DNA from: an uncultured Ignavibacteria bacterium
GTDB taxonomy: Bacteria > Bacteroidota > Ignavibacteria > Ignavibacteriales > Ignavibacteriaceae
DNA length: 64,000 bases
Reading direction: 5' to 3'
Assembly: GCA_963711455.1 (NCBI GenBank)
Contig: CAVQEH010000002.1
Location: forward strand, 522,756-586,755
Numbering within the stretch: position 1 is the stretch's first letter; each line of letters starts with the position of its first letter. The position numbers and the translations under genes were made by a program. Below the pieces are notes generated by a model, which was given only the letters and a program-made list of their open reading frames with translations, did no database searches and was not told the DNA's origin. This document shows positions 50,307 to 63,858 of the stretch, piece by piece.

Positions 50307-51759
50307 TCACTTCAGCAAAATCATCTTTCTTGTTTCCACAAAATAACCTGCACTTAATCTATAAAAATATACGCTGCTTCCAAGCAGACTGTTATCAAAC
50401 GACAAATATAATTTGTATGTTCCTGCCTGTTTAATTCCTTTATCAATGACCTTTATTAATTGACCAAGTGAATTAAATAATTCAACTTTGACATAAGCAG
50501 TGTTCTGTAAATTGTATTCTATCGTAGTAGAAGGATTAAAGGGATTGGGATAATTCTGGTAAAGAATAAATCCTTTATTGTCGGATACAATAGTTGCATT
50601 ACTAAGAAGTTTTATATGCTCTTTGAATAAATCAAACAGATCGGTATTCTGAATTTCATTGAATGCATATTTATCAGCTATGGATGTTAGATCAGGATGA
50701 ACGTAATCCCATATTACTGCTGACCTGGAAGGCGTAGACCTTATTGTCTGAAAATAGATTTTATAATTTTTAATCTTATCATTTATAACACCGAATTCTC
50801 CTAATAGGGCAGGCTTATCATAACTGCCTGAAATTTTAGTATGATTGTTTATCCAGGTATTTCCTGCAAGCACTTCTAATCCCCACCCTTCCGGATATAA
50901 ATGAAATGAAGAGTAATCGATATTTTCGATTGAAGTGTTTTCGACAAAACTTGTCCCCTTGTATCCATCAAATAAAAAATATGAACTGTTGTAAAACAAA
51001 TCCTCATCAGAATAATATTCTTTATGAATATCATAGCCTACTTCCCCTGTAGTAAGAAGATGACTAACATCAATTGATTTAAAATACTCTGCCATTTCTC
51101 TATACCAGGTTTTTAAAATATTTACAGAGAATCCGGTGTTTGATGCTTCATTAATTAATTCGAAACTGAAAATTATTGGTTCATCCTTGTATTGTACGCC
51201 GGTAAAAATATTCCTTCTGTTCAGAATTGAGTTGATATAAAATTTGTACCAGCTTTTTATCGAGTCATCGGTGAAGAAATCACTATGATGATAAATCTTT
51301 CCGGTTTGGGATTTCAATAACAGGTTAGCCCAATAAATATACTGTTCGATTCCCCCAAAATCGCTGAAGTTATTTTCCAGGGTTAAAATAATATTAACAT
51401 TATACTGCTTTGCTTTATAAATTACATAATCGAGTGCTCTTAATCCGGTTTCCTTTAAACCCATAAGGAGAATATCTGATAATCGATTGTTTATTTGAAT
51501 CCGAACCGGAATTAAATCCCCATGTTCTGATTACTTTTATTCCGTTTTGTTGTGCTGTTCTGAATACATCATCTACTATATATTTTTTAGAAGAATCTGA
51601 AGTTATCCATTGTAAGTAATAAGCACTGAATCCTAAAAAATAAAATTCTGAATTTCCCTTATAAAATTTTTTATCCTTACAATAAATAAAATCATTCTGA
51701 GGAAAAGCCGGGTGAATGAATAAAATCATCAGAGATAATATTAACATTAATATTTTCAC
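50307..51759 (-). pseudogene. Glycoside hydrolase family 5 (beta-mannanase/cellulase-like) with a T9SS CTD, split by a 1-nt frameshift near 51450-51465
   Basis: The 51415-51759 ORF carries the signal peptide and first GH5 strands (...VIRTWGFNSG...RYSPYG). The 50307-51464 ORF continues in another frame (LKETGLRALDYVIYKAKQYNVNIILTLENN, acid/base FELINEASN, nucleophile LLGEFG) and ends with the CTD NYPNPFNPSTTI...VYFYRL...RKMILLK. Confidence 0.7.
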
Positions 51760-51995
51760 AACTAAACCAACAACAATCGAAAAAAACTGTTTATTAAAGG
51801 TAGGATTTATTTTTTAGTTGTGCTTTATTTATCTGTTTAACAGAAAATATTTAACATTTTAAATGAATTGCCTTTTCAGGTTTTACATGACAATTCAAAT
51901 ATCAACTTTTATTTTCTTCAAGTCTTCAATAAAATGTTAGCAGCCTGATAGGGGGAGAGACTACCAGGCTGTGCACACAGGGAAAATTGTAATAG

Positions 51996-53636
51996 TTAAG
52001 CGGCTTCTTTTGTTTTTGAACTTGTTGTCCTCATCTTTGTGTACATAACTGAGATTATAAGCAGAATAATACTGACTGCCAAAAATGAAATTACTTTATA
52101 AGTAATGTCGGATGAAGTTATTCCGAAAGCTGCTAAATAAAGGCTCGTTAGTATCAGTGTAGATACTGCCATCATACGGTATTTTTTATTATTAAGGAGT
52201 TTACTCATTAAGTAATAAAGCAGAGCCAGCCCTGCCCACGATAATCCCACAAAGCTTGAAGGCAATACCTGGTAGAGTACATAAGGTAAGATAAAGAAAG
52301 CCATAATCAGGTAAGCAAGCCTGATATAATTAGTTGTCAGTTCTAATCTTGTCTTTTGCCAGTTCAGAATTCTTGCACTTATTAAAGCTGCAAACCCGAA
52401 GCTTATTCCTTCAATGCCAATAACTTTTACGTTGATGAGGTATGAAAGCAGAATACCTCCAAAGATAAAAATGTTTGCCACTATTATAAATTTGGATCTG
52501 AACCATAAAGCAGTAGAGATAACTACTATACTTTGCCAGCATAGAAGTATAAAGAATGCGGGTTCATTATATGAAGCAATAATAGATGCGCTTAGTGCAG
52601 CGTACGCAAACATCGCATAAATAAATGAACCAAACCTGCTTTTTTCTTTTGTCCAGAATAAGATTGCAAGCGTCATTAAAATTGCGAAGGCACCTAAGTG
52701 AACGATTCCAAGATTATTAATTCCGCTCAGGATAGAAATTAAAAGAAACAACCCGTATCCCAATGAGGCATTCATAATTGTAATAAATAATTCATCCAGC
52801 TCCCGTTTTTTATCTTTGATTAGTAATAAACTTCCAATCCCGTAAATCAATAAGTATGCTAATAAAAAAATCAGGTTATACTGAAACCCGGTAGTTATCT
52901 TGAGGTTATATCCAAGTAACGGATTGTTCACGAACCAGAGACAATGAGCAAGGCAAGTGAAAATTATACCAAATACCATAAGGTTGGATGATTTATATTT
53001 TAATGAAAATTGCACGACTGAAAAACTTATTACGGCAAGCATTACGAACATTAACCATGGAACCTCAGTAACAAGTGAGGTCATAATAAAGAACAGTTCT
53101 GCAAGTGCAATTAAATATATCGACTGGCGTTTGAAAGAAATTCCTATGGTTAAAGCACTTACAATCAGCAGCAGGATTACAACAAAAAATCTGCTTGTAA
53201 CTATTGGTTCTGCACTGAAGAAATGAAGACGCAATGTAGTGAGATAAAGCAATGCTGCACCTCCGCCGATTAAAAAACCCGAAATATATTTAAATGATTT
53301 AAGCCAGATTTCGGGAATAACAATCAATGCAATGCTTAGCACAAATCCAATTGCAACAGGAAGCAGCGGGGGATAATTATCTAATGGCTGTGTCATCAGA
53401 AAAAACATACCAAGAAGAAATGCCAGTATTCCGATTTTTGCAAACCAGAATTCCCCGATCGTAAGCTCAAGTGAATCATCTTCTTCCTCCTTCTTTCGTG
53501 CCGGACCTGTTACCTCCTCTGTTTTTGGGTTTTCCCATTTCAGATTCAGTGCATTCTCAACTTCCGTTAATCTCCTTTCAATACGGGTCATCGTATTAAT
53601 GAGGTCTTCAATTAAAGGATTGGATACATCGTTCAT
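51996..53636 (-). CDS. Large polytopic membrane protein, DUF2339-like
   Basis: N-terminal coiled-coil/charged segment (TRIERRLTEVENALN...KKEEEDD) followed by more than 12 hydrophobic helices. The architecture resembles DUF2339. It lies 17 nt downstream of the multihaem cytochrome gene. Confidence 0.55.
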   Translation of the reverse strand: MNDVSNPLIEDLINTMTRIERRLTEVENALNLKWENPKTEEVTGPARKKEEEDDSLELTIGEFWFAKIGILAFLLGMFFLMTQPLDNYPPLLPVAIGFVLSIALIVIPEIWLKSFKYISGFLIGGGAALLYLTTLRLHFFSAEPIVTSRFFVVILLLIVSALTIGISFKRQSIYLIALAELFFIMTSLVTEVPWLMFVMLAVISFSVVQFSLKYKSSNLMVFGIIFTCLAHCLWFVNNPLLGYNLKITTGFQYNLIFLLAYLLIYGIGSLLLIKDKKRELDELFITIMNASLGYGLFLLISILSGINNLGIVHLGAFAILMTLAILFWTKEKSRFGSFIYAMFAYAALSASIIASYNEPAFFILLCWQSIVVISTALWFRSKFIIVANIFIFGGILLSYLINVKVIGIEGISFGFAALISARILNWQKTRLELTTNYIRLAYLIMAFFILPYVLYQVLPSSFVGLSWAGLALLYYLMSKLLNNKKYRMMAVSTLILTSLYLAAFGITSSDITYKVISFLAVSIILLIISVMYTKMRTTSSKTKEAA

Positions 53637-53653
53637 AACTCCTCCGGGTTATT

Positions 53654-55138
53654 TTAATCCTTGGAAGGATTTTGTTTTTCTATTTTCCTGATGTATAAAA
53701 ACAGTACGAGTATCAGAAAACTTATTATTAACACCGATATTCCCAGGCCTACTCTTCTGAAGTAATATTCATGAATTGCCCCTCTTGCTTCTGCTATTAC
53801 ATCTTTTGAAGATGCAAATCCTTTATCGACAACTTCTTTAAATTTTTGTTCATTAAAAGAATGAAGAACTGTTCTTGATTGAAGTTTTGCCTGGTGTATA
53901 TTTCTTAATTCAAATTTTGCTTCTTCAACTTCCATCCCCTTTTGTTCGGCTTCGAAGATAAGGTTGTGAGCCAGTGTGTCCTGTTGCTCAAGGCTGTCAA
54001 GCCAGAATTTCATTTTAGAAGCAACTTTATAACCATTAACATTTTCTGATGATGAATGGCATTTGATACATACTGCACCCGAACTTATCCCAAGAAGACT
54101 ATCCTGGGCAGGAAGAATTTCGTGATGACCATGACACGTTTCACATTCGGGATAATTGTGTTCATCAAATGCTTTCTTGTGCGGACTGCCCGAGAACAAT
54201 TCGGCATTTAAAACATGGCAGGTTCCACAAACTTTTGAAATGGATGTTAACCCGGGTGGCATAGCACCATGATTACCATGACAACTATTGCAGACTGGAG
54301 CGCTTAAATCATTCTTTTCAAATAAAGCTATTCCGTGAGCACTCCTGGAATATTTTTCAAATTGATCTGTCGGTATTCCGTATTGCTTCATATACTCTTT
54401 ATTGCTATGACAGTTGGAACAGGTTTTGGGAATGTTGGTTGGGTATACAGAAGACTGAACATCTTTTGTTGAAAGAATGTTATGGCTTCCATGGCAGCTT
54501 ACACATTGTGCAGGTTTTGGATCTCCTTTTGCATTAAGAATACCATGTTCACTTGTACGGTATTTCTGCAATTGATCAATTGCTATTTCAGGATTGTAGG
54601 AACGCATAAACTTAGCATCACCATGACACTTGTTGCAGGTTTGCGGAATATTTGTAGGATAAACAGGAGACTTGGAATCTTTCACTGAAACAATTCCATG
54701 AGCATTATGACAGGTAATGCATTGAACAATTCTATCAGTTCCGTTTAGACTTAATTTTCCATGCACACTGTTTTTTAATAATTCCAATTGATTCGTTGGA
54801 AGTCTCTTGTTATAGTGTGAAATGAACGAAGAATCGGAATGGCACTTTGCACATATTTCAGAAATTTGGTTTCCCTTCGGAACCCCGATGAAACCTTTGT
54901 TTTTATTCATGGCTTCATCCATATCTTCACTATTATTGTCTCCGCCATGGCAATCAGAACATGATAACCCTGCAAGATGATGAATATCATTTTTAAATAA
55001 TTCCGCAGGTGTGCTTCCTAAATCAGAGTGGCAGGAGAAACATTGGTCCTGTTTTGCAGCATATACTTTTAAGTAACTAAATGTAAGAAAAAATAAAAAT
55101 GTTAAGCAGAATTTCGTTACAGTTTTCACGACAGCCAC
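53654..55138 (-). CDS. Undecahaem c-type cytochrome with a C-terminal membrane anchor
   Basis: Signal peptide. Eleven CxxCH motifs (CFSCH, CSDCH, CAKCH, CITCH, CNKCH, CVSCH, CSNCH, CNSCH, CGTCH, CETCH, CIKCH). C-terminal TM helix [20 protein letters not shown]. The start overlaps the cytochrome b stop by 13 nt. Confidence 0.9.
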
Positions 55139-56226
55139 CCGAGCGTTGTTAAGAGAATGATAAAGATTACGGCAAATAATCCCATATAATTAATCTTCAG
55201 GTTTCGTTCACCTCTTGAGCTTTTGCGATCCCAGAAAGGAACAAGCAGCCAGAGAATACCGGCTATACCGAAAAGAAGAATTCCAACAACTTCTCCTTCG
55301 AAGAAGAAGATATGAGAAGGGAAGTACTTTAAAGTCTGGAACATAAAGAGGAAATACCATTCGGGTTTGATCCCTGCAGGCGCGCTTCCGAAAAGATTTG
55401 CTTTCAACCCGAGTTCAGCAGGAAAGAAGACAGCGAGCACAGCTAAAAGGTTTAATACCAGTAACCATAAAAGAAGATCACGCAGAAAGAAGTTTGGAAA
55501 GAAAGGCATCTTCTTTAATGGTTTTTTTGATTTTTCTGTTTCAAGTGGTTCGCTCATTCCCTGTCTCTGGACAAGAATAAGATGTATTGCAAGGATCATT
55601 GTGAATATTCCTGGCAGAAGTGCTACGTGGAAGCCAAAAAATCTTGAAAGCGTTGCACCTGTTACATCACTGCCGCCTCTGAGGAAAATTTTGATTGGTT
55701 CTCCTACAAAAGGAATTGCACCGGCAATATCGGAACCTACTTTTGTTGCAAAGAAAGCAAGCTGATTCCATGGGAGAAGGTAACCGCTGAATCCGAAAAA
55801 TAATGCGAGGAAAAACATTATTACTCCTGTTAGCCAGGTTAACTCTCTCGGTTTGCGGTATGCTTTTTCAAAATAAACACTAAACATATGAATGAACAAT
55901 GAAAGTATAAAAAGATTTGCCGACCACGCGTGTATTGATCTTACAAGCCAGCCGAACTGTACTTTGGACATTATAAACTGAATGCTCTCGTATGCGAGAT
56001 CCGCACTTCCTTTATAATAAAAAAGGAGAAGTATTCCTGTAACAACCTGTATGATAAAAAAGAAAACAGAAACTCCTCCGAAATAATACCATAATGAATG
56101 TCTGTGAACGGGCACATACTTTTTACTAAAGAATTTAATAAGGTCTTCAAACTGTACCCGTTCGTCTGTCCATTTATAAATTTTTAAAAAGAGATTTTTC
56201 ATTTTTTCACTATGTATTTTTTGCAA
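55126..56226 (-). CDS. Cytochrome b (fused b6 + subunit IV-like) of a Rieske/cyt b complex
   Basis: Helix-B haem ligands are H-x13-H ([15 protein letters not shown]). Helix-D ligands are H-x14-H ([16 protein letters not shown]), which is the b6-type spacing. The Qo-site PEWY motif is present (KPEWYFLF). Confidence 0.92.
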
Positions 56227-56662
56227 TCATTAATTCGTCGCCCTTTATTATGGTTTTATATTTTGTAAGAGGTCTCGGCGGGGGACCGGAAATGTTGCGC
56301 CCCGTTAAATCGTATTTACCGTTATGACAGGCACACCAGATTACATTTTTATCCTTCAAATATTGCACGGTACAATCAAGGTGAGTACACCTTGCTGAAA
56401 GTGCAATAAAGTTATTCTTATCAGGAATAACTATTACCGGTTCATTTCCAAAGCGGATAATCTTAAAGTTCTCTTTTTTCAGATCTTCTATTTTCCCGGC
56501 ACTGACTACAGAGACTTCAACTTCTCTTTGTTTAGGAGGACGCAGAAAAGAAAAAACCGGATATAAAACGGAAGCAGAAAATGCAGTTACTCCGGTTATA
56601 CCAAGAATTTTCAGAAAGCTTCTCCGGTTTGTTTGTTTATTAACTAGATCAGATTTTTCCAT
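56210..56662 (-). CDS. Rieske [2Fe-2S] protein with a twin-arginine signal
   Basis: Tat motif [10 protein letters not shown]. Cluster-binding boxes are CTHLDC and CACHNG. The cytochrome b start overlaps its stop by 17 nt. Confidence 0.9.
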
Positions 56663-56683
56663 AATGAGAATGCTTTTATTACT

Positions 56684-57052
56684 TTATTTATAAAATGAAA
56701 TTGTTGCTGATATTATCTCTTTAATAATTTTGTTGTCGATCGGTTTTTCGGTTAAATTAAATATGCCCTCCTGGTAAAGTATTCCGCCTTCGTTAGGATT
56801 AATTCTTTCATTTAAGATGATCAGCGGGATTCTTGGATTTATTCGCTTAATGATTTTTACCCAGTTATGACATGCAGAAAAACTTTCAGTGCAATCGCAA
56901 ATCACCATGTCGTAATCATTCTCCTGGAGATCAAGAATGAACCCTGCGAATTCTTTTTTCTTAACGAGTGCAATACCAATCTCCGAGCAAATTTCAAAAC
57001 ATTGTGATATTGTATCCTCATCGCTGCTAAGTATTATCCCTCTGAACTTCAT
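56684..57052 (-). CDS. Stand-alone receiver (CheY-like) domain protein with atypical conserved positions
   Basis: 122 aa. Beta1 is GIILSSDED rather than the usual xDD. A phospho-acceptor-like Asp is present in DMVICDC. A KP motif is present in LTEKPID. The position usually held by Thr/Ser reads LIILNE. Confidence 0.5.
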   Translation of the reverse strand: MKFRGIILSSDEDTISQCFEICSEIGIALVKKKEFAGFILDLQENDYDMVICDCTESFSACHNWVKIIKRINPRIPLIILNERINPNEGGILYQEGIFNLTEKPIDNKIIKEIISATISFYK

Positions 57053-57252
57053 AAGCGATACCTTCTATATCTTAAACCTGTGAAGTCATTTATTGTACCA
57101 GAAAAGTATTTATCGGCTTTATTTAGAATTTGAAAGGATTTGGCGGGAATATAATGAGTTGCACCTCCCAAATAAATTGAAGAATGAATGAAAAGTGTAT
57201 CCCTGATGTCACACTAATTGATAATTGTCAATTGTTAATTTATAATTACTAA

Positions 57253-58641
57253 TCACTTCCTGTATTGCTGAGGATCAAGATTATATTTTTTAAGTATGCG
57301 GTGAATATGTCTGCGGGTCATTCCTGCTTCTTCCGAAATTCGGGTAATATTTCCCTTATGCTTATTTAACAAAAAAAGAAAATACTTTTTTTCAACTTCC
57401 TCTACTGCTTTATTCCTTACCTGCGAAAGTGATGTCGTTTTAAAATGAGTTGAGGTCTGTCGTGAAGAAATGAATTGGGAAGGGAGTTCGTTAAGAGTTA
57501 TTTTTTCACCTTTGGAGAGTGCAACTGCACGTTCGACTATATTTTCCATTTCTCTTACATTCCCGGGCCAGTCGTATGCTTCAAATAATTCGATCACAGA
57601 ATCATCAAATCCTTTTATATTCTTTGGAGATGACTTAACCGTCTTAATAAGAAAGTGTTCTGCAAGAAGCCGGATATCTCCTTCACGCTCTCTTAATGGC
57701 GGAACCTGGATGTTAATGACGTTCAGCCTGTAATAGAAATCCTTACGCATTATTTCTCTTTCAAGCGCTTTATTAATATCCTGGTTTGTTGCAGATATTA
57801 ACCTTATATCAGCCTGTAGTAATTCGTTTCCGCCAAGTCGCCTCAACTGCTGGTCCTGCAAGCTTCTTAATAATTTTATCTGGAGATTAACAGGAAGTTC
57901 ACAAACCTCATCAAGAAAAAATGAGCCTCCGTTTGCATATTCAAGCAGTCCTATTTTTCTGTGAGTTGCTCCCGTAAAAGCACCTTTTTCATAACCGAAT
58001 AATTCTGCCTCAAAAAGATTCTCGGGGAAGGCTCCACAATTTACAGGAACAAAAGGCTTAAGCTTTCTTCTGCTGTGAGCATGAATACTGCGTGCTATCA
58101 ATTCTTTTCCTGTACCGCTTTCTCCTGTAATAAGAACATTAGCTTCAGAATCGGCAACGCTTTCAATCATTTCAAAAACTTTTCTTATAGGTTCGCTTTT
58201 ACCAATAATGTTATCAAACCTGTACCTGTCTTCAAGCTGCTTAAGTAAGTTGATTCTTTCTTTATAAAGGTTCCTTTGACGCAAACCTTTTTCTACTAGT
58301 ATTTTCAGGTTCTCGGTTTCAAATGGTTTTTCAATAAAATCAAAAGCTCCCGCTTTCATCGCTGCAACAGCTCTGTCTATTGTGCCGTAAGCTGAAAACA
58401 TAATTACCGGTGTGTTCGGTGCCAGTTTTTGTATTGCATCTAAAACCTGCATTCCATCGAAGTCTGGCATAAGCAGATCACAAAATACTAAATCAAATTC
58501 TTCATCCTGCATCAGACTAATTGCCTGTTTTCCATCAGGAACAGGATAAGGGCTATTACCCAATGCTGAAAGTATTTTCGCACAGCCTTTAAGCATATCA
58601 GGTTCATCATCTATAATCAGGATTTTGTGGTTTGCATTCAT
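57253..58641 (-). CDS. Sigma-54-dependent response regulator (NtrC family: receiver + AAA+ + Fis-type HTH)
   Basis: Receiver domain (ILIIDDEPD, FCDLLMPDFDG). Walker A GESGTGKE. GAFTGA loop. C-terminal HTH GNITRISEEAGMTRRHIHRILKKY. Confidence 0.92.
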   Translation of the reverse strand: MNANHKILIIDDEPDMLKGCAKILSALGNSPYPVPDGKQAISLMQDEEFDLVFCDLLMPDFDGMQVLDAIQKLAPNTPVIMFSAYGTIDRAVAAMKAGAFDFIEKPFETENLKILVEKGLRQRNLYKERINLLKQLEDRYRFDNIIGKSEPIRKVFEMIESVADSEANVLITGESGTGKELIARSIHAHSRRKLKPFVPVNCGAFPENLFEAELFGYEKGAFTGATHRKIGLLEYANGGSFFLDEVCELPVNLQIKLLRSLQDQQLRRLGGNELLQADIRLISATNQDINKALEREIMRKDFYYRLNVINIQVPPLREREGDIRLLAEHFLIKTVKSSPKNIKGFDDSVIELFEAYDWPGNVREMENIVERAVALSKGEKITLNELPSQFISSRQTSTHFKTTSLSQVRNKAVEEVEKKYFLFLLNKHKGNITRISEEAGMTRRHIHRILKKYNLDPQQYRK

Positions 58642-60401
58642 ATTTTAATTCCTTCGCTGCTGTAAGGCAGAGTAATTATAAACCGTGTAAATTTTCCTTC
58701 TTCGCTTTCAACATCAAGTTTACCTCGGTATCTCTGCACTATTGTTCTGGAAATTGATAAGCCCAATCCGGTTCCCTGCGCATCAAGCTTTGTAGAGAAG
58801 AAAGGATTAAAAATTTTGGATAGATTTTCCTTTTTTATTCCCATCCCATCGTCTTCAATTGAAATAAAGATACCATTAATTTTCTTTGATCCGAACGGAT
58901 TTCGATCAATATCATTTTTCCCGGTTTTTATTTTTATTTCTCCGCCATTTGATAATGCATCTATTGCATTGTTAAGTATATTTATAATTACTTGTTCCAT
59001 CTGCCTTTTATCTGCAAGAATCAATGGAAGTGAAGGAGCGTAAAATTTGGTCAAATGTATTTTATTTGCTTTTATACGATGTCCTATAAGATAAACACAT
59101 TCATCTATCAAATCTTCAATGCGAATAGCTTCAGGTTTGAAAGGCATTAAACGGGAATAAGTGAGAAGCGTTCTTGTATAATCGGCTATCCTTCGTGTCT
59201 GGTTCCTTATAATATTCAACTCTTCCCTGATACTATTATATTTCTCGTCTTCAAGCAGAAGCGCATCAGTGTGAGCGGCAATAATTCCTGCAGGCGTATT
59301 CAATTCGTGTGCTACGCTATCAACCAGTTCTCCTATTGAAGCAAGCTTTGAAGCCTGGTTTAACTGTTCCCTGTATTGATGTATTTCTTCGAGATTCCTG
59401 TTAACCTCTTCTGCTCTTATTCTTTTAAGATTAATAAAATATATTAATACGCCAAGAGTAAAAATCACTGCGAGAATAATTAATCCTAAAATAAAAAACA
59501 GTTGAAACCGGCTTCTTAACCCTGTCGTTACTTTAGGAAGCAATGTACTAATTGCAATAATCCATTTTTGGTTTTGAAGCTTCACAGGCACATAAGCCAT
59601 TATTTTATGAGGCTCATTTCCACGCACATAATATTCATCAACAGAAGAATGATTTGATGTAATCATCCTGTTTTGAGTATCGAAATTTACATGGCAGTTG
59701 TTGCATTCATTAGTTGTTCTAAGGATTGATTTAAAAAGCATTTCCTGATGTCTCGGGTGATAAATAAGTCTTCCTTCGCCATCGAGCACCCAGGCGAAAT
59801 CATCACTGCTTAATTTTAATGGCTTAATAAAACGTTTAATGAGAATATCAAAATCAACAAGATAACCAACGAAATAATTATTTTTACTTTTGTCTTTCTC
59901 ATTGAGTCTGATTATCATCAGGAAAGATTCAGGACTGTTCTTAACATTACTATAATCCGGCATTACATCAGAAAAAACATATTCCGAATCGGTTCTGTTT
60001 ATTGATGAAGTTAACCCGGGAATTTTTTTCAGCGACCAGTTTGGAAGGATGTTGCCTATGCTATAAATAACCAGTCCGGAAGAATCAGCCAAAAATATCG
60101 AACGTATAATAGTGCTGTCGTAGTTCTCTTTAAAGAATCTGAAATAAGCATAATTATTTTTTGCAGGGGTAGCAAGTACATCGGGATTATGAGTTAACAA
60201 TTTCATATCTCTAACGAGATGCTCTATAAAGAAATTGATTCCCTGTGCAACAGATTTAGCCATTTCAAGCTGCTGAAGCTGGTGATCATGTTTTGCATCT
60301 TCCAATGTACTGTTATAAATTCTGTTTACCAGAAAAAGGAATATAAAGACGAGCACAATTGTACCGATTGTGACAAAGTATTTTCTTGATTTTCTTTTCA
60401 T
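58638..60401 (-). CDS. Sensor histidine kinase with a periplasmic Cache/PAS-like domain carrying a CxxCH haem-c motif
   Basis: TM1 is about aa 8-29 and TM2 about aa 300-325, enclosing a roughly 270-aa periplasmic domain with C233-NN-C236-H237. Canonical H-box SVAHELNTPAG. HATPase boxes NNAIDA, DDGMGI and GTGLGLSI. There is a 4-nt overlap with the NtrC-type gene. Confidence 0.88.
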   Translation of the reverse strand: MKRKSRKYFVTIGTIVLVFIFLFLVNRIYNSTLEDAKHDHQLQQLEMAKSVAQGINFFIEHLVRDMKLLTHNPDVLATPAKNNYAYFRFFKENYDSTIIRSIFLADSSGLVIYSIGNILPNWSLKKIPGLTSSINRTDSEYVFSDVMPDYSNVKNSPESFLMIIRLNEKDKSKNNYFVGYLVDFDILIKRFIKPLKLSSDDFAWVLDGEGRLIYHPRHQEMLFKSILRTTNECNNCHVNFDTQNRMITSNHSSVDEYYVRGNEPHKIMAYVPVKLQNQKWIIAISTLLPKVTTGLRSRFQLFFILGLIILAVIFTLGVLIYFINLKRIRAEEVNRNLEEIHQYREQLNQASKLASIGELVDSVAHELNTPAGIIAAHTDALLLEDEKYNSIREELNIIRNQTRRIADYTRTLLTYSRLMPFKPEAIRIEDLIDECVYLIGHRIKANKIHLTKFYAPSLPLILADKRQMEQVIINILNNAIDALSNGGEIKIKTGKNDIDRNPFGSKKINGIFISIEDDGMGIKKENLSKIFNPFFSTKLDAQGTGLGLSISRTIVQRYRGKLDVESEEGKFTRFIITLPYSSEGIKI

Positions 60402-60553: not shown

Positions 60554-60566
60554 GTCACAGTGTGAC
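60554..60566. promoter_or_regulatory. Perfect 13-bp palindrome GTCACAgTGTGAC (candidate operator) in the divergent intergenic region
   Basis: Located at 60554-60566, with a third GTCACA half-site at 60574-60579. It lies between the kinase operon (minus strand) and the MacAB-like operon (plus strand). Confidence 0.3.
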
Positions 60567-60769
60567 ATAATTAGTCACAACAAAATTAATTGGAATATTT
60601 TTGAATATTAATTCTGATGCACATATATCAAAACCACTAATAATAATTTAAGGTTATTCAATATAATTTTGAAATCACTCACCAGAAATTAACCAAAAGT
60701 TAAAGAGAAATGTCTTTGCTTTATGGATTCAGTTAGTTAATTTTAAAGCTTAAAATTCCCGGGACAGAG

Positions 60770-61957
60770 ATGGAAACAAGTAAAGCCGATTTATCTTCGC
60801 TTAGGATAGATAGGTCTAATAATCATAATCCGAATTCATCGCGAAAAACTGTAATTATTATAGTTGTAATTATTGCTGCGGCGATTTTATTATTTCTTGG
60901 ATATACAATAGGTGGCTCATTATTTAATCCGGCAGAAGAAGTAAAACTTGTCACCGTCACACTTCAATCACCTTCACAGGCAAGTGCAGACCTAGCTGCA
61001 AGCGGCTATGTGGTTGCACAAAGAAAAGCAGCCGTTGCTTCGAAAGGAACAGGACGGTTGGAATACCTTGGAGTTGTTGAGGGAGATAAAGTTAAAAAAG
61101 ATCAGGTCCTTGGGAGATTAGAAGATAATGATATCAGGGCTCAGCTTGAAGAAGCAAACGCTAATCTGAAATTAGCTGAGGCAGATTTAAAAGATTCGGA
61201 AAATAATTACAACAGGCAGAAAGAATTATTAAAATCCGGAGCTACAACCCAAATGGATGTAGATGCTGCCGAAGCGCAATACAAAAGAGTGCTTGCTTCA
61301 ATTGATGTGGCAAAAGCAAATGTAAACTCTGCTCAAGTAGCTTTGGAAAATACTCTTATCCGTGCACCATTTGACGGAACAGTTTTAACTAAAAATGCTG
61401 AAGTAGGTGAAATTGTTGCACCGCTTGGTGCAAGTACGACTTCACGTGGTGCAATCGTCACTATGGCTGATATGAAATCACTTCAGGTGGAAGCAGATGT
61501 TTCGGAATCTTATATTGAACGAATTAAAACGGGACAGAGCTGCGAGATAATTCTTGATGCGTATCCACAAACTTCTTATGAAGGTTTTGTGGATAAAATT
61601 GTTCCGACTGCCGACAGGTCAAAAGCTACAGTACTTGTTAAAGTTGGTTTTAAAAAATATGATAGTAAAGTTCTTCCTGAAATGAGCGCTAAAGTTCTTT
61701 TTCTTTCAGAGCAGTTAACGGCTGAACAGAAAAATGAACCGTCCGTGCTTGTCGTACCTTTTACTTCTGTAGCTAAACGTGATGGACGCGATGTAGCATT
61801 TATGGTTAAAGATGATAAAGCTGTTGAAGTACCTGTTGTGAAAGGGAGAGACCTGGATTCCTTTATTGAAATTAAATCTGGACTTGCTGAAGGCGACAGA
61901 GTTATTGAGAAAGTGAACGATGAAATTAAAGATGGCGTAAAGATAAAAGTTCAGTAG
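60770..61957 (+). CDS. Efflux periplasmic adaptor (HlyD/MacA-like)
   Basis: N-terminal TM anchor. Coiled-coil hairpin (RAQLEEANANLKLAEADLKDSENNYNRQKELL). IRAPFDGTVLTKNAEVGEIV barrel motif. Confidence 0.85.
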   Translation: METSKADLSSLRIDRSNNHNPNSSRKTVIIIVVIIAAAILLFLGYTIGGSLFNPAEEVKLVTVTLQSPSQASADLAASGYVVAQRKAAVASKGTGRLEYLGVVEGDKVKKDQVLGRLEDNDIRAQLEEANANLKLAEADLKDSENNYNRQKELLKSGATTQMDVDAAEAQYKRVLASIDVAKANVNSAQVALENTLIRAPFDGTVLTKNAEVGEIVAPLGASTTSRGAIVTMADMKSLQVEADVSESYIERIKTGQSCEIILDAYPQTSYEGFVDKIVPTADRSKATVLVKVGFKKYDSKVLPEMSAKVLFLSEQLTAEQKNEPSVLVVPFTSVAKRDGRDVAFMVKDDKAVEVPVVKGRDLDSFIEIKSGLAEGDRVIEKVNDEIKDGVKIKVQ

Positions 61958-62017
61958 TGTGTCATCATTCCTTTTAAAAAGAATAATAGATAAATCCCAA
62001 ATTTTACCGGAGTTAAA

Positions 62018-62701
62018 ATGGCAGACATTATAAATGTTTTAAATGTTAACAAATCATACTGGAGGGACAGCCTGGAAATTCCTGTTCTCCATAATATTAC
62101 TTTGAATATTAAGGAAGGTGAATTTATTGCTTTGATGGGACCTTCCGGGTCGGGCAAAACTACTTTGCTTAATTTGTTGTCCGGGATTGACAGGCCTACT
62201 TCAGGCAGCATAACTGTTGCCGGTACTGATATTGCAAAGCTAAGTGAATCATCGCTTGCAAAGTGGCGTTCTGCAAACATTGGGTTTGTATTTCAGTTCT
62301 ATAATTTAATTCCGGTACTTACTGCTTATGAAAATGTCGAACTCCCGTTGTTGCTCACTAATTTGTCTAAGGCTGAAAGAAAAAAACATGTTCAGACTTC
62401 TTTAGAAATAGTTGGACTTGGAGACAGGATATATCACTATCCAAAACAATTATCCGGCGGACAGGAACAGAGAGTTGCAATTGCCCGGGCTATTGTTACC
62501 GATCCGGCGATACTAGTAGCCGATGAGCCGACCGGTGACCTTGACAGAAATTCTGCAGATGATATTTTAACTTTGATGGAAAGACTTAACAAGGAGTTTA
62601 ATAAAACTATTGTTATGGTTACTCACGATCCTCACGCAGCTTCCAAAGCTCACCTTATCCGCAATCTTGAAAAAGGCGATTTAATACCGGAGCTTGTATG
62701 A
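62018..62701 (+). CDS. ABC transporter ATP-binding protein (MacB/LolD-type)
   Basis: Walker [11 protein letters not shown]-loop, signature [14 protein letters not shown], Walker [13 protein letters not shown] and H-loop VTHD. Confidence 0.93.
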
Positions 62702-63858
62702 AAGTATTTAAACTTATTTTCAAAAACGCTCTTCGACACAAATTAAGATCATCTCTTACGATTCTCGGAATCGCTGTTGCAGTAATTGCTTTTGGTCTCC
62801 TTCGTACTGTTGTAACAGCATGGTATGTCGGAGTCGAAGCTTCTTCAGCCGACAGGCTTATAACAAGGCAGGCTGTTTCATTTATATTTCCGTTACCTTA
62901 TGCATACAGAGATAAAATAGCGGCAGTGCCCGGTGTTGATGAGGTTACTTTCGCAAACTGGTTCCAGGGAGTTTATATTGATAAAAATCAGTTCTTTGCA
63001 AGATTAGCTGTTGATGCAAATACTTTTTTAGATGTTTATCCGGAATTTGTTTTATCTCCTATGGAAATAACAAACTTCAAAAAAGAAAAAAACTCATGTG
63101 TAATCGGTGAAAAAATTGCAGAACAATATCACTTAAAGATAGGCGATATGATGGCGATTGAAGGAGATATTTATCCCGGCAGATGGGAATTTGTAATTCG
63201 CGGAATTTATAAACCCAAATATAAAACCACAGATGCAACACAGATGATGTTTCACTGGGATTATGTCGATGACAGGATGAGAGTTGAAATGCCCGGACGT
63301 GAGGGTGATGTTGGCTGGTATGTTATTAAAATTAATGATCCTTCCAGGTCCGCCGAAATATCTGAAAAGATTGATGCATTATTTAAAAATTCTCCTGCTG
63401 AAACTAAGACGGAAACCGAAAGAGCATTCCAGCAGGGTTTCCTGGCATCAACCAGCGCAATAATTACTTCAATGAATTTTCTTTCGTTTGTGATAATAGG
63501 AATTATCATGCTGGTTCTTGCGAACACAATGATAATGGCTGCAAGAGAAAGAACAAGGGAATATGCTGTGTTAAAAACTCTCGGATTTTCCGCTAAACAT
63601 CTGGTTGGTTTAATTATGGGTGAATCTCTTTTTATGGCTTTGCTTGGCGGAGGAATCGGACTGTTAATTACATTCCCTATGGTAAATAGTTTTGCTGCAG
63701 TTATTCCCAAAGGATTTTTCCCGGTATTTGAAGTTGAACCGATAACAATAATTCTTGCAATAAGTGCTGCAGTTATTATCGGGATTGTTTCTGCAATATT
63801 CCCTATACAAAGAGCATTAAGCACACGCATTGTTGATGGATTCAGGTTCGTGGGATAG
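62698..63858 (+). CDS. ABC transporter permease, FtsX/MacB-like
   Basis: N-terminal TM helix, a periplasmic MacB_PCD-like domain and C-terminal FtsX-type helices (REYAVLKTLGFSAKHL). There is a 4-nt overlap with the ATPase gene. Confidence 0.88.
   Translation: MKVFKLIFKNALRHKLRSSLTILGIAVAVIAFGLLRTVVTAWYVGVEASSADRLITRQAVSFIFPLPYAYRDKIAAVPGVDEVTFANWFQGVYIDKNQFFARLAVDANTFLDVYPEFVLSPMEITNFKKEKNSCVIGEKIAEQYHLKIGDMMAIEGDIYPGRWEFVIRGIYKPKYKTTDATQMMFHWDYVDDRMRVEMPGREGDVGWYVIKINDPSRSAEISEKIDALFKNSPAETKTETERAFQQGFLASTSAIITSMNFLSFVIIGIIMLVLANTMIMAARERTREYAVLKTLGFSAKHLVGLIMGESLFMALLGGGIGLLITFPMVNSFAAVIPKGFFPVFEVEPITIILAISAAVIIGIVSAIFPIQRALSTRIVDGFRFVG

Follow-up and report, generated by a model that had tools for sequence, protein, structure and literature searches.

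The stretch of DNA analysed here, 64 kb of contig CAVQEH010000002.1 from an uncultured Ignavibacteria bacterium (the window), carries on its minus strand, between positions 51996 and 60401, seven open reading frames (ORFs). In order of transcription they encode a sensor histidine kinase with a haem-binding motif, an NtrC-type sigma-54-dependent response regulator, a small receiver-like protein, a Rieske iron-sulphur protein, a cytochrome b, a c-type cytochrome with eleven haem motifs and a polytopic membrane protein related to the DUF2339 family. A sequence-only reading of the window had described these as one module of co-directional genes, and the ORF coordinates reproduce the junctions it gave: a 4-nt overlap, gaps of 200 and 21 nt, overlaps of 17 and 13 nt, and a final gap of 17 nt. 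The domain identities it proposed are matched by Pfam and NCBIfam, weakly for the receiver and marginally for DUF2339. The explanation that we favour, with moderate confidence, is that the locus specifies a regulated, sigma-54-controlled quinol:multihaem-cytochrome c oxidoreductase accompanied by an optional, non-redox membrane partner.

The Rieske/cytochrome b/multihaem core

The Rieske gene (56210-56662, minus strand, like all seven ORFs) encodes a 150-aa protein that matches the Pfam Rieske family (PF00355) with 52 bits and, weakly, TM_PetC. All the expected attributes are present, namely CxH and CxxH boxes (CTHLDC and CACHNG), the disulfide cysteines, a twin-arginine translocation (Tat) signal (RRSFLK) and a transmembrane anchor. 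The cytochrome b gene (55126-56226; 366 aa) scores 179 bits against Cytochrome_B and 43 bits against Cytochrom_B_C (PF00032). Its 17-nt overlap with the Rieske gene hinges on a TTG start; an ATG at codon 9 would leave a 7-nt gap, and relatives align from about residue 5-9 onward. In a sequence search of the Protein Data Bank (PDB), the cytochrome b6 of solved b6f complexes aligned to residues 15-228 with 207 bits, and the match to the cytochrome b of bacterial bc1 complexes extended over the full length. Comparison with the cytochrome b6 of 1vf5_A shows that both histidine pairs, the four ligands of haems bL and bH, are retained with b6-type spacing, and that a tyrosine stands in place of Cys35, the haem ci/cn ligand characteristic of b6f proper. 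Cytochrome b is therefore assigned to a fused b6/subunit-IV type lacking haem ci. The Qo-site motif PEWY (KPEWYFL) lies in the subunit-IV-like part. The best NCBIfam match after b6 was ExtP (NF040969), at 215.4 bits, under the equivalog cut-off of 290.

The third gene (53654-55138; GTG start, 494 aa) matches a multihaem family and encodes a protein with a signal peptide, 11 CXXCH motifs and a C-terminal hydrophobic anchor. A PDB sequence search gave no relative of it. Eleven haems are counted in 90 of its orthologues and nine in 20, and the C-terminus is hydrophobic in nearly all. Rather than a mono- or di-haem cytochrome c1 or f, it is this anchored cytochrome that holds the gene position and the topology of c1/f. 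These features suggest that the three proteins form a bc/b6f-type complex acting as a quinol:multihaem-cytochrome oxidoreductase. Such a complex would resemble cytochrome b6f and bc1 in its Tat-dependent Rieske protein with both boxes, its four histidines in b6-type spacing and its PEWY motif. It would differ from them in the fusion of b6 with subunit IV, in having no haem-ci cysteine, in the replacement of mono-haem c1/f by an 11-haem subunit, and in the company of a DUF2339-like gene and dedicated sigma-54 regulators. Since the two other Rieske/cytochrome b-c fusion sets of this 4.8-Mb genome adjoin oxidase-like genes, the window complex is a third, separate branch. These other sets lie at C6:862808-871298, where two divergent Rieske and cytochrome b genes are found; the cytochromes b are fused to c-type haem domains (647 aa with 2 CXXCH and 471 aa with 1 CXXCH), haem-copper-oxidase-like genes are adjacent, and the sets are probably the aerobic bc-type complexes of the genome.

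The destination of the electrons can be approached through related loci. Upstream of the core, relatives carry a CbcL-like fusion of multihaem and b561 parts, additional multihaem proteins, a b561-like protein and a 6-haem protein of the NapC/NirT type; downstream, loci devoid of the DUF2339-like gene carry a c554-like tetrahaem protein, a porin-like protein of 437 aa, a 14-haem protein, 4-6-haem proteins and a CcmF-like haem lyase. At least 25 relatives have CbcL-like and NapC-like cytochrome genes contiguous with the orthologous core, many of them together with the tetrahaem/porin-like/14-haem set. Corresponding sets exist in the present genome, apart from the core: tetrahaem/porin-like/14-haem/6-haem genes at C6:896178-900156 and 13-haem-b561/19-haem/b561/6-haem NapC-like genes at C6:1502496-1509064. 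Thus, cytochrome sets that adjoin the core in relatives are dispersed here. Giant cytochromes with 20 and 43 haems are encoded at C10:52370-57153. Porin-cytochrome clusters and many multihaem cytochromes have been reported in Ignavibacteria (PMC7399161, PMC4245776). The dispersed sets support, and do not prove, delivery of electrons toward an outer-membrane conduit.

An alternative to such a conduit, although in our estimate an unlikely one, is that the complex supplies a soluble periplasmic reductase (acting on nitrite, N-oxides, arsenate or selenite) or runs in reverse, passing outside electrons to the quinone pool. A Rieske/cytochrome b pair of Caldithrix abyssi sits in the nap/epsilon-Hao cluster (PMC5317091), and ExtP, to which cytochrome b has its sub-threshold match, belongs to a selenite/tellurite operon. 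Also consistent with this alternative, the window holds no adjacent acceptor gene and the genome encodes several octahaem cytochromes with no assigned role. However, the loci examined showed no nitrite or nitrate reductase genes next to orthologous cores, and the recurrent contiguity of the core with CbcL-like and NapC-like cytochromes argues for the outer-membrane route.

The DUF2339-like gene and its neighbourhoods

The last gene of the module (51996-53636) encodes a 546-aa protein that scores 36.4 bits against PF10101 (cut-off 33.6) and covers only positions 4-335 of the 659 of the model; a Melioribacter orthologue reaches 68 bits. Its AlphaFold2 (AF2) model (pLDDT 78) begins with a soluble N-terminal helix, followed by an acidic linker that is disordered and by about 17 transmembrane helices. 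A profile search of the PDB gave 0 matches and no meaningful fold match was obtained; a structural analogy to the best Foldseek matches, which are designed helical toroids with TM-scores of 0.17-0.31, was rejected. Trp, Arg, Lys, Asn, Ser and Tyr account for most of the invariant positions, which fall in loop-proximal motifs such as ALWFRSK and LISARILNWQK. Haem or metal binding was considered and discarded, the near-invariant residues including only one histidine (H231) and one cysteine (C366). Since no His or Cys pair is conserved, a redox role is unlikely. Neither this protein nor the receiver-like protein has a paralogue in the genome.

A scan of one genome per species with the DUF2339-like protein returned 262 loci, of which the best 80 were kept and classified by local tblastn with the seven window proteins; 77 were informative and 3 too short. 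Loci found in this way are biased toward presence of the DUF2339-like gene, and taxon names of relatives are the labels in the sequence records. Relatives are numerous, and those with a named organism are labelled Ignavibacteria or relatives thereof. The sequence-only reading had asked whether the DUF2339-like gene travels with the core. Viewed from this side it does: in 75 of the 77 informative loci (Ignavibacteria, Calditrichia) it lies next to the Rieske/cytochrome b/multihaem genes. Two gene orders occur, with the DUF2339-like gene either last (63 loci) or ahead of the Rieske gene (12 loci, labelled Melioribacter, Caldithrix/Calditrichaceae or Bacteroidetes). At one of the two remaining loci, L069:175-7031, a Mo-oxidoreductase/4Fe-4S/NrfD/c554-like tetrahaem set precedes the DUF2339-like gene, in place of the Rieske and cytochrome b genes. 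The DUF2339-like gene and the downstream genes of L069 match 80%-identical relatives (L128-L130) that carry the Rieske/cytochrome b/multihaem order. The arrangement looks like a module swap at a fixed site.

The search was extended with a subfamily profile, which found 312 representatives at E <= 1e-30 among 1.84 billion. The contexts of nine distant members from Bacteroidia were examined, most coming from relatives of P0352, some of which are labelled Lentimicrobiaceae, Bacteroidales or Mariniphaga. With P0352 the window protein shares motifs and an end-to-end alignment at 26% identity. A tetrahaem/FeS/NrfD quinol module was adjacent in seven of the nine contexts. In six, NrfD is encoded immediately upstream of the DUF2339-like gene; the four of these with sufficient contig show an operon for a membrane-anchored tetrahaem cytochrome, an NrfC-like FeS protein and NrfD, separated from the DUF2339-like gene by -14 to +115 nt. 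The seventh has the tetrahaem/FeS/NrfD genes divergently adjacent, and the other two have unrelated neighbours. Together with the L069 swap, these contexts indicate that the subfamily accompanies two unrelated kinds of quinol-to-cytochrome module. The NrfH/NrfC/NrfD-type modules (Cbc4-like) match the present proposal in their function, from quinol to periplasmic cytochrome c, and are followed by the same DUF2339-like subfamily; their membrane subunits and cofactors are unrelated to those of a Rieske/cytochrome b complex.

A different picture emerges when the core is taken as the starting point. In 301 evenly sampled genomes of the phylum, 38 relatives carry an orthologous cytochrome b at 56% identity or more, and in all 38 the Rieske and multihaem genes lie alongside it; the DUF2339-like gene is adjacent in only 10. 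A whole-genome search of the 301 for the DUF2339-like gene was positive in 14. Because its first-look filter seemed insensitive to a hydrophobic protein, it was followed by local tblastn around every orthologous cytochrome b and by a profile search of the 28 negative genomes. The filter had ultimately missed nothing near the cores; it returned few candidates, and negatives for hydrophobic proteins need such a local check. An orthologue was found elsewhere in 3 of the 28, each time at a contig end, with two on contigs of about 4 kb and one with an in-frame stop. The last of these (G145:C25:28715-30345, at L127), split by an in-frame TGA in a genome whose core has no adjacent copy, may be a pseudogene. 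A large membrane protein that ends clusters without the DUF2339-like gene was considered as a diverged DUF2339 member and rejected, being the CcmF-like haem lyase mentioned above. At L102:16703-19003 (also L089 and L096) this 766-aa protein closes an extended cluster, which hints at a special haem-attachment need of some cluster cytochrome.

The three states of the DUF2339-like gene require at least 8 changes on a cytochrome b tree of 101 rows, where shuffled labels require 40.9, and either gene order is found on both sides of deep branches. By tree and census together, the gene is an accessory that has been kept beside the core through several rearrangements and lost several times. The functional tie between the DUF2339-like protein and the core that the sequence-only reading had put forward thus stands from the side of the DUF2339-like gene but not from that of the core. 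In this one-sided form, a functional tie of the module genes is supported by comparative genomics.

For the role of the protein several options have to be kept apart. A physical partner or scaffold of the complex comes first, though only tentatively; an assembly or maintenance factor is somewhat less probable; and a co-regulated membrane-homeostasis protein and a protein unrelated to the complex are both rather improbable, to a similar degree. It is conceivable, and we propose it with reserve, that the DUF2339-like proteins of about 550 aa are a dedicated, hitherto unrecognised partner of inner-membrane quinol:multihaem-cytochrome oxidoreductases, interchangeable between two unrelated architectures, one of Rieske/cytochrome b type (Ignavibacteria, Calditrichia) and one of NrfH/NrfC/NrfD type (Bacteroidia). 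Were this so, the Arc3A/DUF2339 family would gain a second role, in respiration, and the protein could, for example, organise the lipid or quinone environment at the quinol site or provide a dock for the anchored cytochrome.

Regulatory genes and a putative sigma-54 promoter

The kinase gene (58638-60401) encodes 587 aa with HisKA and HATPase_c domains and, between two transmembrane helices, a periplasmic Cache-like domain (dCache_1, sub-threshold in Pfam). A single CNNCH occurs at residue 233, and this CXXCH is invariant in every full-length orthologue, down to 31-33% identity; it is a predicted c-type haem site in the periplasmic sensor domain. The NtrC-type regulator (57253-58641; 462 aa) has a receiver (Response_reg, 100 bits), an AAA+ domain with GAFTGA (Sigma54_activat, 226 bits), an acidic pocket and a Fis-type helix-turn-helix (HTH_8). 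The pair resembles NtrBC-type systems with periplasmic c-haem sensors in combining a sigma-54 activator with a kinase whose periplasmic sensor domain contains CXXCH. A search for the sigma-54 gene, which had been suggested along with the sequence-only reading, found rpoN in the genome.

The spacer between the NtrC and receiver genes was aligned in 15 close loci and is diverged apart from three conserved islands. The first, AGTGgGACATcaGGGATACACTTt, occupies window positions 57192-57215 and corresponds to a conserved upstream site, AGTGTGACATCAGGGATACACTTT, on the minus strand; the second, with the consensus T.TGGTA.AATAAaTG.C, lies at 57085-57100; and the third is a leader, AAAGGTATCGCTT, ahead of the ATG. 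The second island contains a sigma-54-type -24/-12 element, TGGTACAATAAATGAC, which reads TGGTAC-N6-TGA in the window and is situated on the minus strand 34 nt ahead of the receiver start codon. The first island, about 105 nt upstream of the -24 element, is a candidate enhancer. At distant loci, where the receiver-like protein is 31-50% identical, TGGTAY-N6-TGC or AGC is found at equal distance, and L021, L031, L033, L037 and L122 have TGTGACAT repeats forming one or two sites farther upstream. A putative sigma-54 promoter with an upstream enhancer fits the conserved islands of the 200-nt gap. A genome-wide count of TGGYAY-N5-NTGM revealed no clear enrichment upstream of ORFs, so that phylogenetic footprinting, rather than a genomic consensus, is the basis of the promoter call.

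Only two copies of the 8-mer GTGTGACA exist in the window, one ahead of the kinase gene and one ahead of the receiver gene. A TGTGAC/GTCACA pair at about -155/-142 of the kinase gene is kept in most close relatives and forms part of a candidate operator of TGTGAC/GTCACA/TGTGAC repeats, read from the sequence at 60554-60579 (minus strand); the kinase-NtrC unit may be autoregulated through these repeats. The region upstream of the kinase gene yielded no -24/-12 element. With GTGTGACA ahead of both groups of genes, the TGTGAC pair at the kinase gene and the -24/-12 element at the receiver gene only, the single seven-gene module originally described probably comprises two transcription units, one for the kinase and NtrC genes and the other running from the receiver gene through the DUF2339-like gene. 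A consensus scan found no convincing terminator within the second unit, in agreement with the sequence-only reading. The terminator-like hairpin that the latter called weak is real and stronger than that: situated at 51941-51971 (minus strand), 3' of the DUF2339-like gene, it has an 11-bp stem with a folding energy of -22.3 kcal/mol (z = -3.1 versus shuffles) and is trailed by a modest U-run only.

The first gene of the presumptive sigma-54 unit (56684-57052) encodes the 122-aa receiver-like protein, which scores 19.4 bits against the Pfam receiver (cut-off 30.2). Its AF2 model (pLDDT 83) has the (beta/alpha)5 CheY fold and matches many receivers in Foldseek with TM-scores of 0.70-0.82 at probability 1.00. 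The designation as a stand-alone receiver is borne out by the fold but not by the chemistry: among orthologues the acceptor column is Asp or Glu (Glu in L052, L114 and L122), and conservation is lacking in the columns for Lys, Thr/Ser and the acidic pair, so that the active site is degenerate. The gene always comes next after the NtrC gene, including at L122, where the regulatory trio lies downstream of the core and a 5-haem cytochrome gene comes after the small gene. This constancy, which extends to a locus without the core downstream, places the small protein with the regulators rather than with the complex; whether the lone receiver travels with the core had been asked, and what it travels with is the NtrC gene. 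The protein is read as an atypical or pseudo-receiver of the regulatory unit, where it probably acts as a feedback modulator through protein contacts. All nine orthologues aligned have Cys18, and three more cysteines surround the acceptor Asp of the window protein (CDC...C). One of the Foldseek matches is RitR (PDB 5u8m), an Asp-less, Cys-based redox sensor, and a thiol switch is conceivable. The small protein differs from RitR and the NtrBC-type regulators in having no output domain and in an acceptor position that is Asp or Glu among orthologues.

The kinase-NtrC-receiver trio lies upstream of the core at loci of the window type and at L021, L031, L033, L037, L052 and L114, and downstream at L122. 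The proposed link of the two-component system to the core is upheld by its recurrence beside the core in three arrangements, with the putative promoter and upstream site conserved. It is an accessory rather than an obligatory link: most of the 38 core-bearing relatives have no adjacent two-component system.

Proposed function and alternatives

From these observations the following scheme can be drawn. Menaquinol would be oxidised at the PEWY Qo site of the Rieske/cytochrome b/11-haem complex, and one electron would travel via the Rieske cluster and the 11-haem subunit to multihaem cytochromes of the periplasm and outer membrane, with an extracellular-electron-transfer conduit encoded elsewhere in the genome as the most likely sink. 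The kinase would sense the redox or ligand state of the periplasm through its c-type haem and phosphorylate the NtrC-type activator. The latter would bind the TGTGACAT site and open the sigma-54 promoter in the 200-nt gap, thereby driving the receiver-like, Rieske, cytochrome b, 11-haem cytochrome and DUF2339-like genes. The CheY-fold protein, made first, most likely feeds back on the kinase or the activator by protein contacts and not by phosphotransfer. The DUF2339-like protein is most likely an optional integral-membrane partner of quinol-to-cytochrome modules generally, be it a subunit with scaffold function or a factor for assembly or maintenance.

Several observations weigh against this scheme. 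Terminal acceptor genes are not adjacent to the core in this genome, and the acceptor is deduced from relatives only. The -12 dinucleotide of the promoter is GA here instead of the canonical GC, close relatives having GC, GT or GA. The window receiver-like protein itself retains Asp52, at the acceptor position, as well as Lys103, so phosphorylation is possible. Twenty-eight of the 38 core-bearing relatives have no DUF2339-like gene beside the core, and in 25 of them the profile search found no orthologue at all; the complex must therefore work without this protein. Conversely, two informative loci with adequate flanks (L044 and L069) contain a DUF2339-like gene and no Rieske/cytochrome b/multihaem core, the distant members L136 and L139 have no Rieske/cytochrome b neighbours, and L044, L136 and L139 have no respiratory neighbours of any kind. 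Finally, the only DUF2339 protein studied so far, Arc3A (PA5114) of Pseudomonas aeruginosa, defends against a phospholipase toxin and is not involved in respiration (PMC8926400).

This last point, together with the members that have no respiratory neighbours, lends some weight to the idea that the DUF2339-like protein is a membrane-homeostasis factor of the Arc3A type, which limits damage from lysophospholipids or other lipids and is merely co-expressed with quinol-oxidising complexes that stress the membrane. Arc3A prevents the accumulation of lysophospholipids under phospholipase toxin attack by a mechanism that is unexplained (PMC8926400). Like the window protein it belongs to PF10101 and is polytopic, with many transmembrane hairpins and no obvious catalytic residues (PMC8926400); the lack of conserved redox ligands in the window protein and the dispensability of the latter to the core accord with a role of this kind. 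However, Arc3A has about 35 transmembrane helices, pairs with Arc3B and counters the phospholipase Tle3, whereas the protein studied here has 546 aa, about 17 transmembrane helices and respiratory neighbours, and its subfamily, far shorter than Arc3A, matches half of the Pfam model. No Arc3B-type gene (PF13163), the neighbour found in arc3 loci of Gram-negative bacteria, was detected: the ORFs immediately downstream of the DUF2339-like gene match no Pfam family, and the gene upstream is that of the 11-haem cytochrome. Furthermore, the DUF2339-like genes adjoin two unrelated modules, at spacings between -14 and about +160 nt and across several rearrangements, a pattern more specific than general co-regulation under stress would predict. 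Therefore, an Arc3A-type function appears rather improbable, and a partner of quinol-to-cytochrome modules remains the preferred interpretation. That the seven genes are neighbours by an accident of local history in one clade, with the regulators controlling other targets, is very improbable: the trio is adjacent in a minority only (21 of the 80 loci found via the DUF2339-like gene, 2 of the 38 found via the core), but it recurs in lineages at 31-50% identity and in varied positions relative to the core, and the promoter and upstream site are conserved precisely at the start of the target operon.

Sediments, soils, bioreactors and anode biofilms commonly harbour Ignavibacteria, in which extracellular electron transfer is suspected; we know of no previous description of how their quinone pool is wired to multihaem cytochromes. 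The complexes closest to the one proposed here are the ExtMNOPQS/Cbc-type clusters of Geobacter and the Rieske/cytochrome b complexes of anammox bacteria and, linked to nap genes, of Caldithrix. These share a b6-like cytochrome b, multihaem partners and a role in anaerobic electron transfer (PMC12954380, PMC5317091); the subunit sets differ, and none is known to have a DUF2339-like partner or a haem-kinase/NtrC/pseudo-receiver trio. According to their genome papers, the strains of Ignavibacterium album and Melioribacter roseus possess alternative complex III only (PMC3362086, PMC3534657). Literature searches on DUF2339, and on Ignavibacteria or Melioribacter with Rieske or multihaem, found no description of the module. 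Thus, Rieske/cytochrome b complexes with multihaem partners were already known; the novelty lies in the DUF2339-like companion, in control by a haem-kinase/NtrC/pseudo-receiver unit and in the link to NrfCD-type modules. The present locus and about 100 related ones define, as one candidate link from quinone pool to cytochromes, a conserved Rieske/cytochrome b complex whose multihaem subunit has 9 or 11 haems, and offer a probable route by which it is switched on, through a haem-sensing kinase, a sigma-54 activator and a pseudo-receiver. A subfamily of DUF2339, a family spread across bacteria, thereby acquires a concrete candidate role in respiration that can be tested.

The module is flanked by genes of other kinds. 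Directly 3' of it, at 50307-51759 on the minus strand, two overlapping ORFs (51415-51759, 114 aa, and 50307-51464, 385 aa with a T9SS sorting tail) resemble one secreted glycoside hydrolase broken by a frameshift. On the opposite side, a MacAB-like efflux operon at 60770-63858 (plus strand) diverges from the kinase gene and comprises two ORFs of 227 and 386 aa besides a 395-aa RND-type adaptor that Pfam confirms. The operon and the kinase gene have in common a 368-nt region that bears the TGTGAC repeats.

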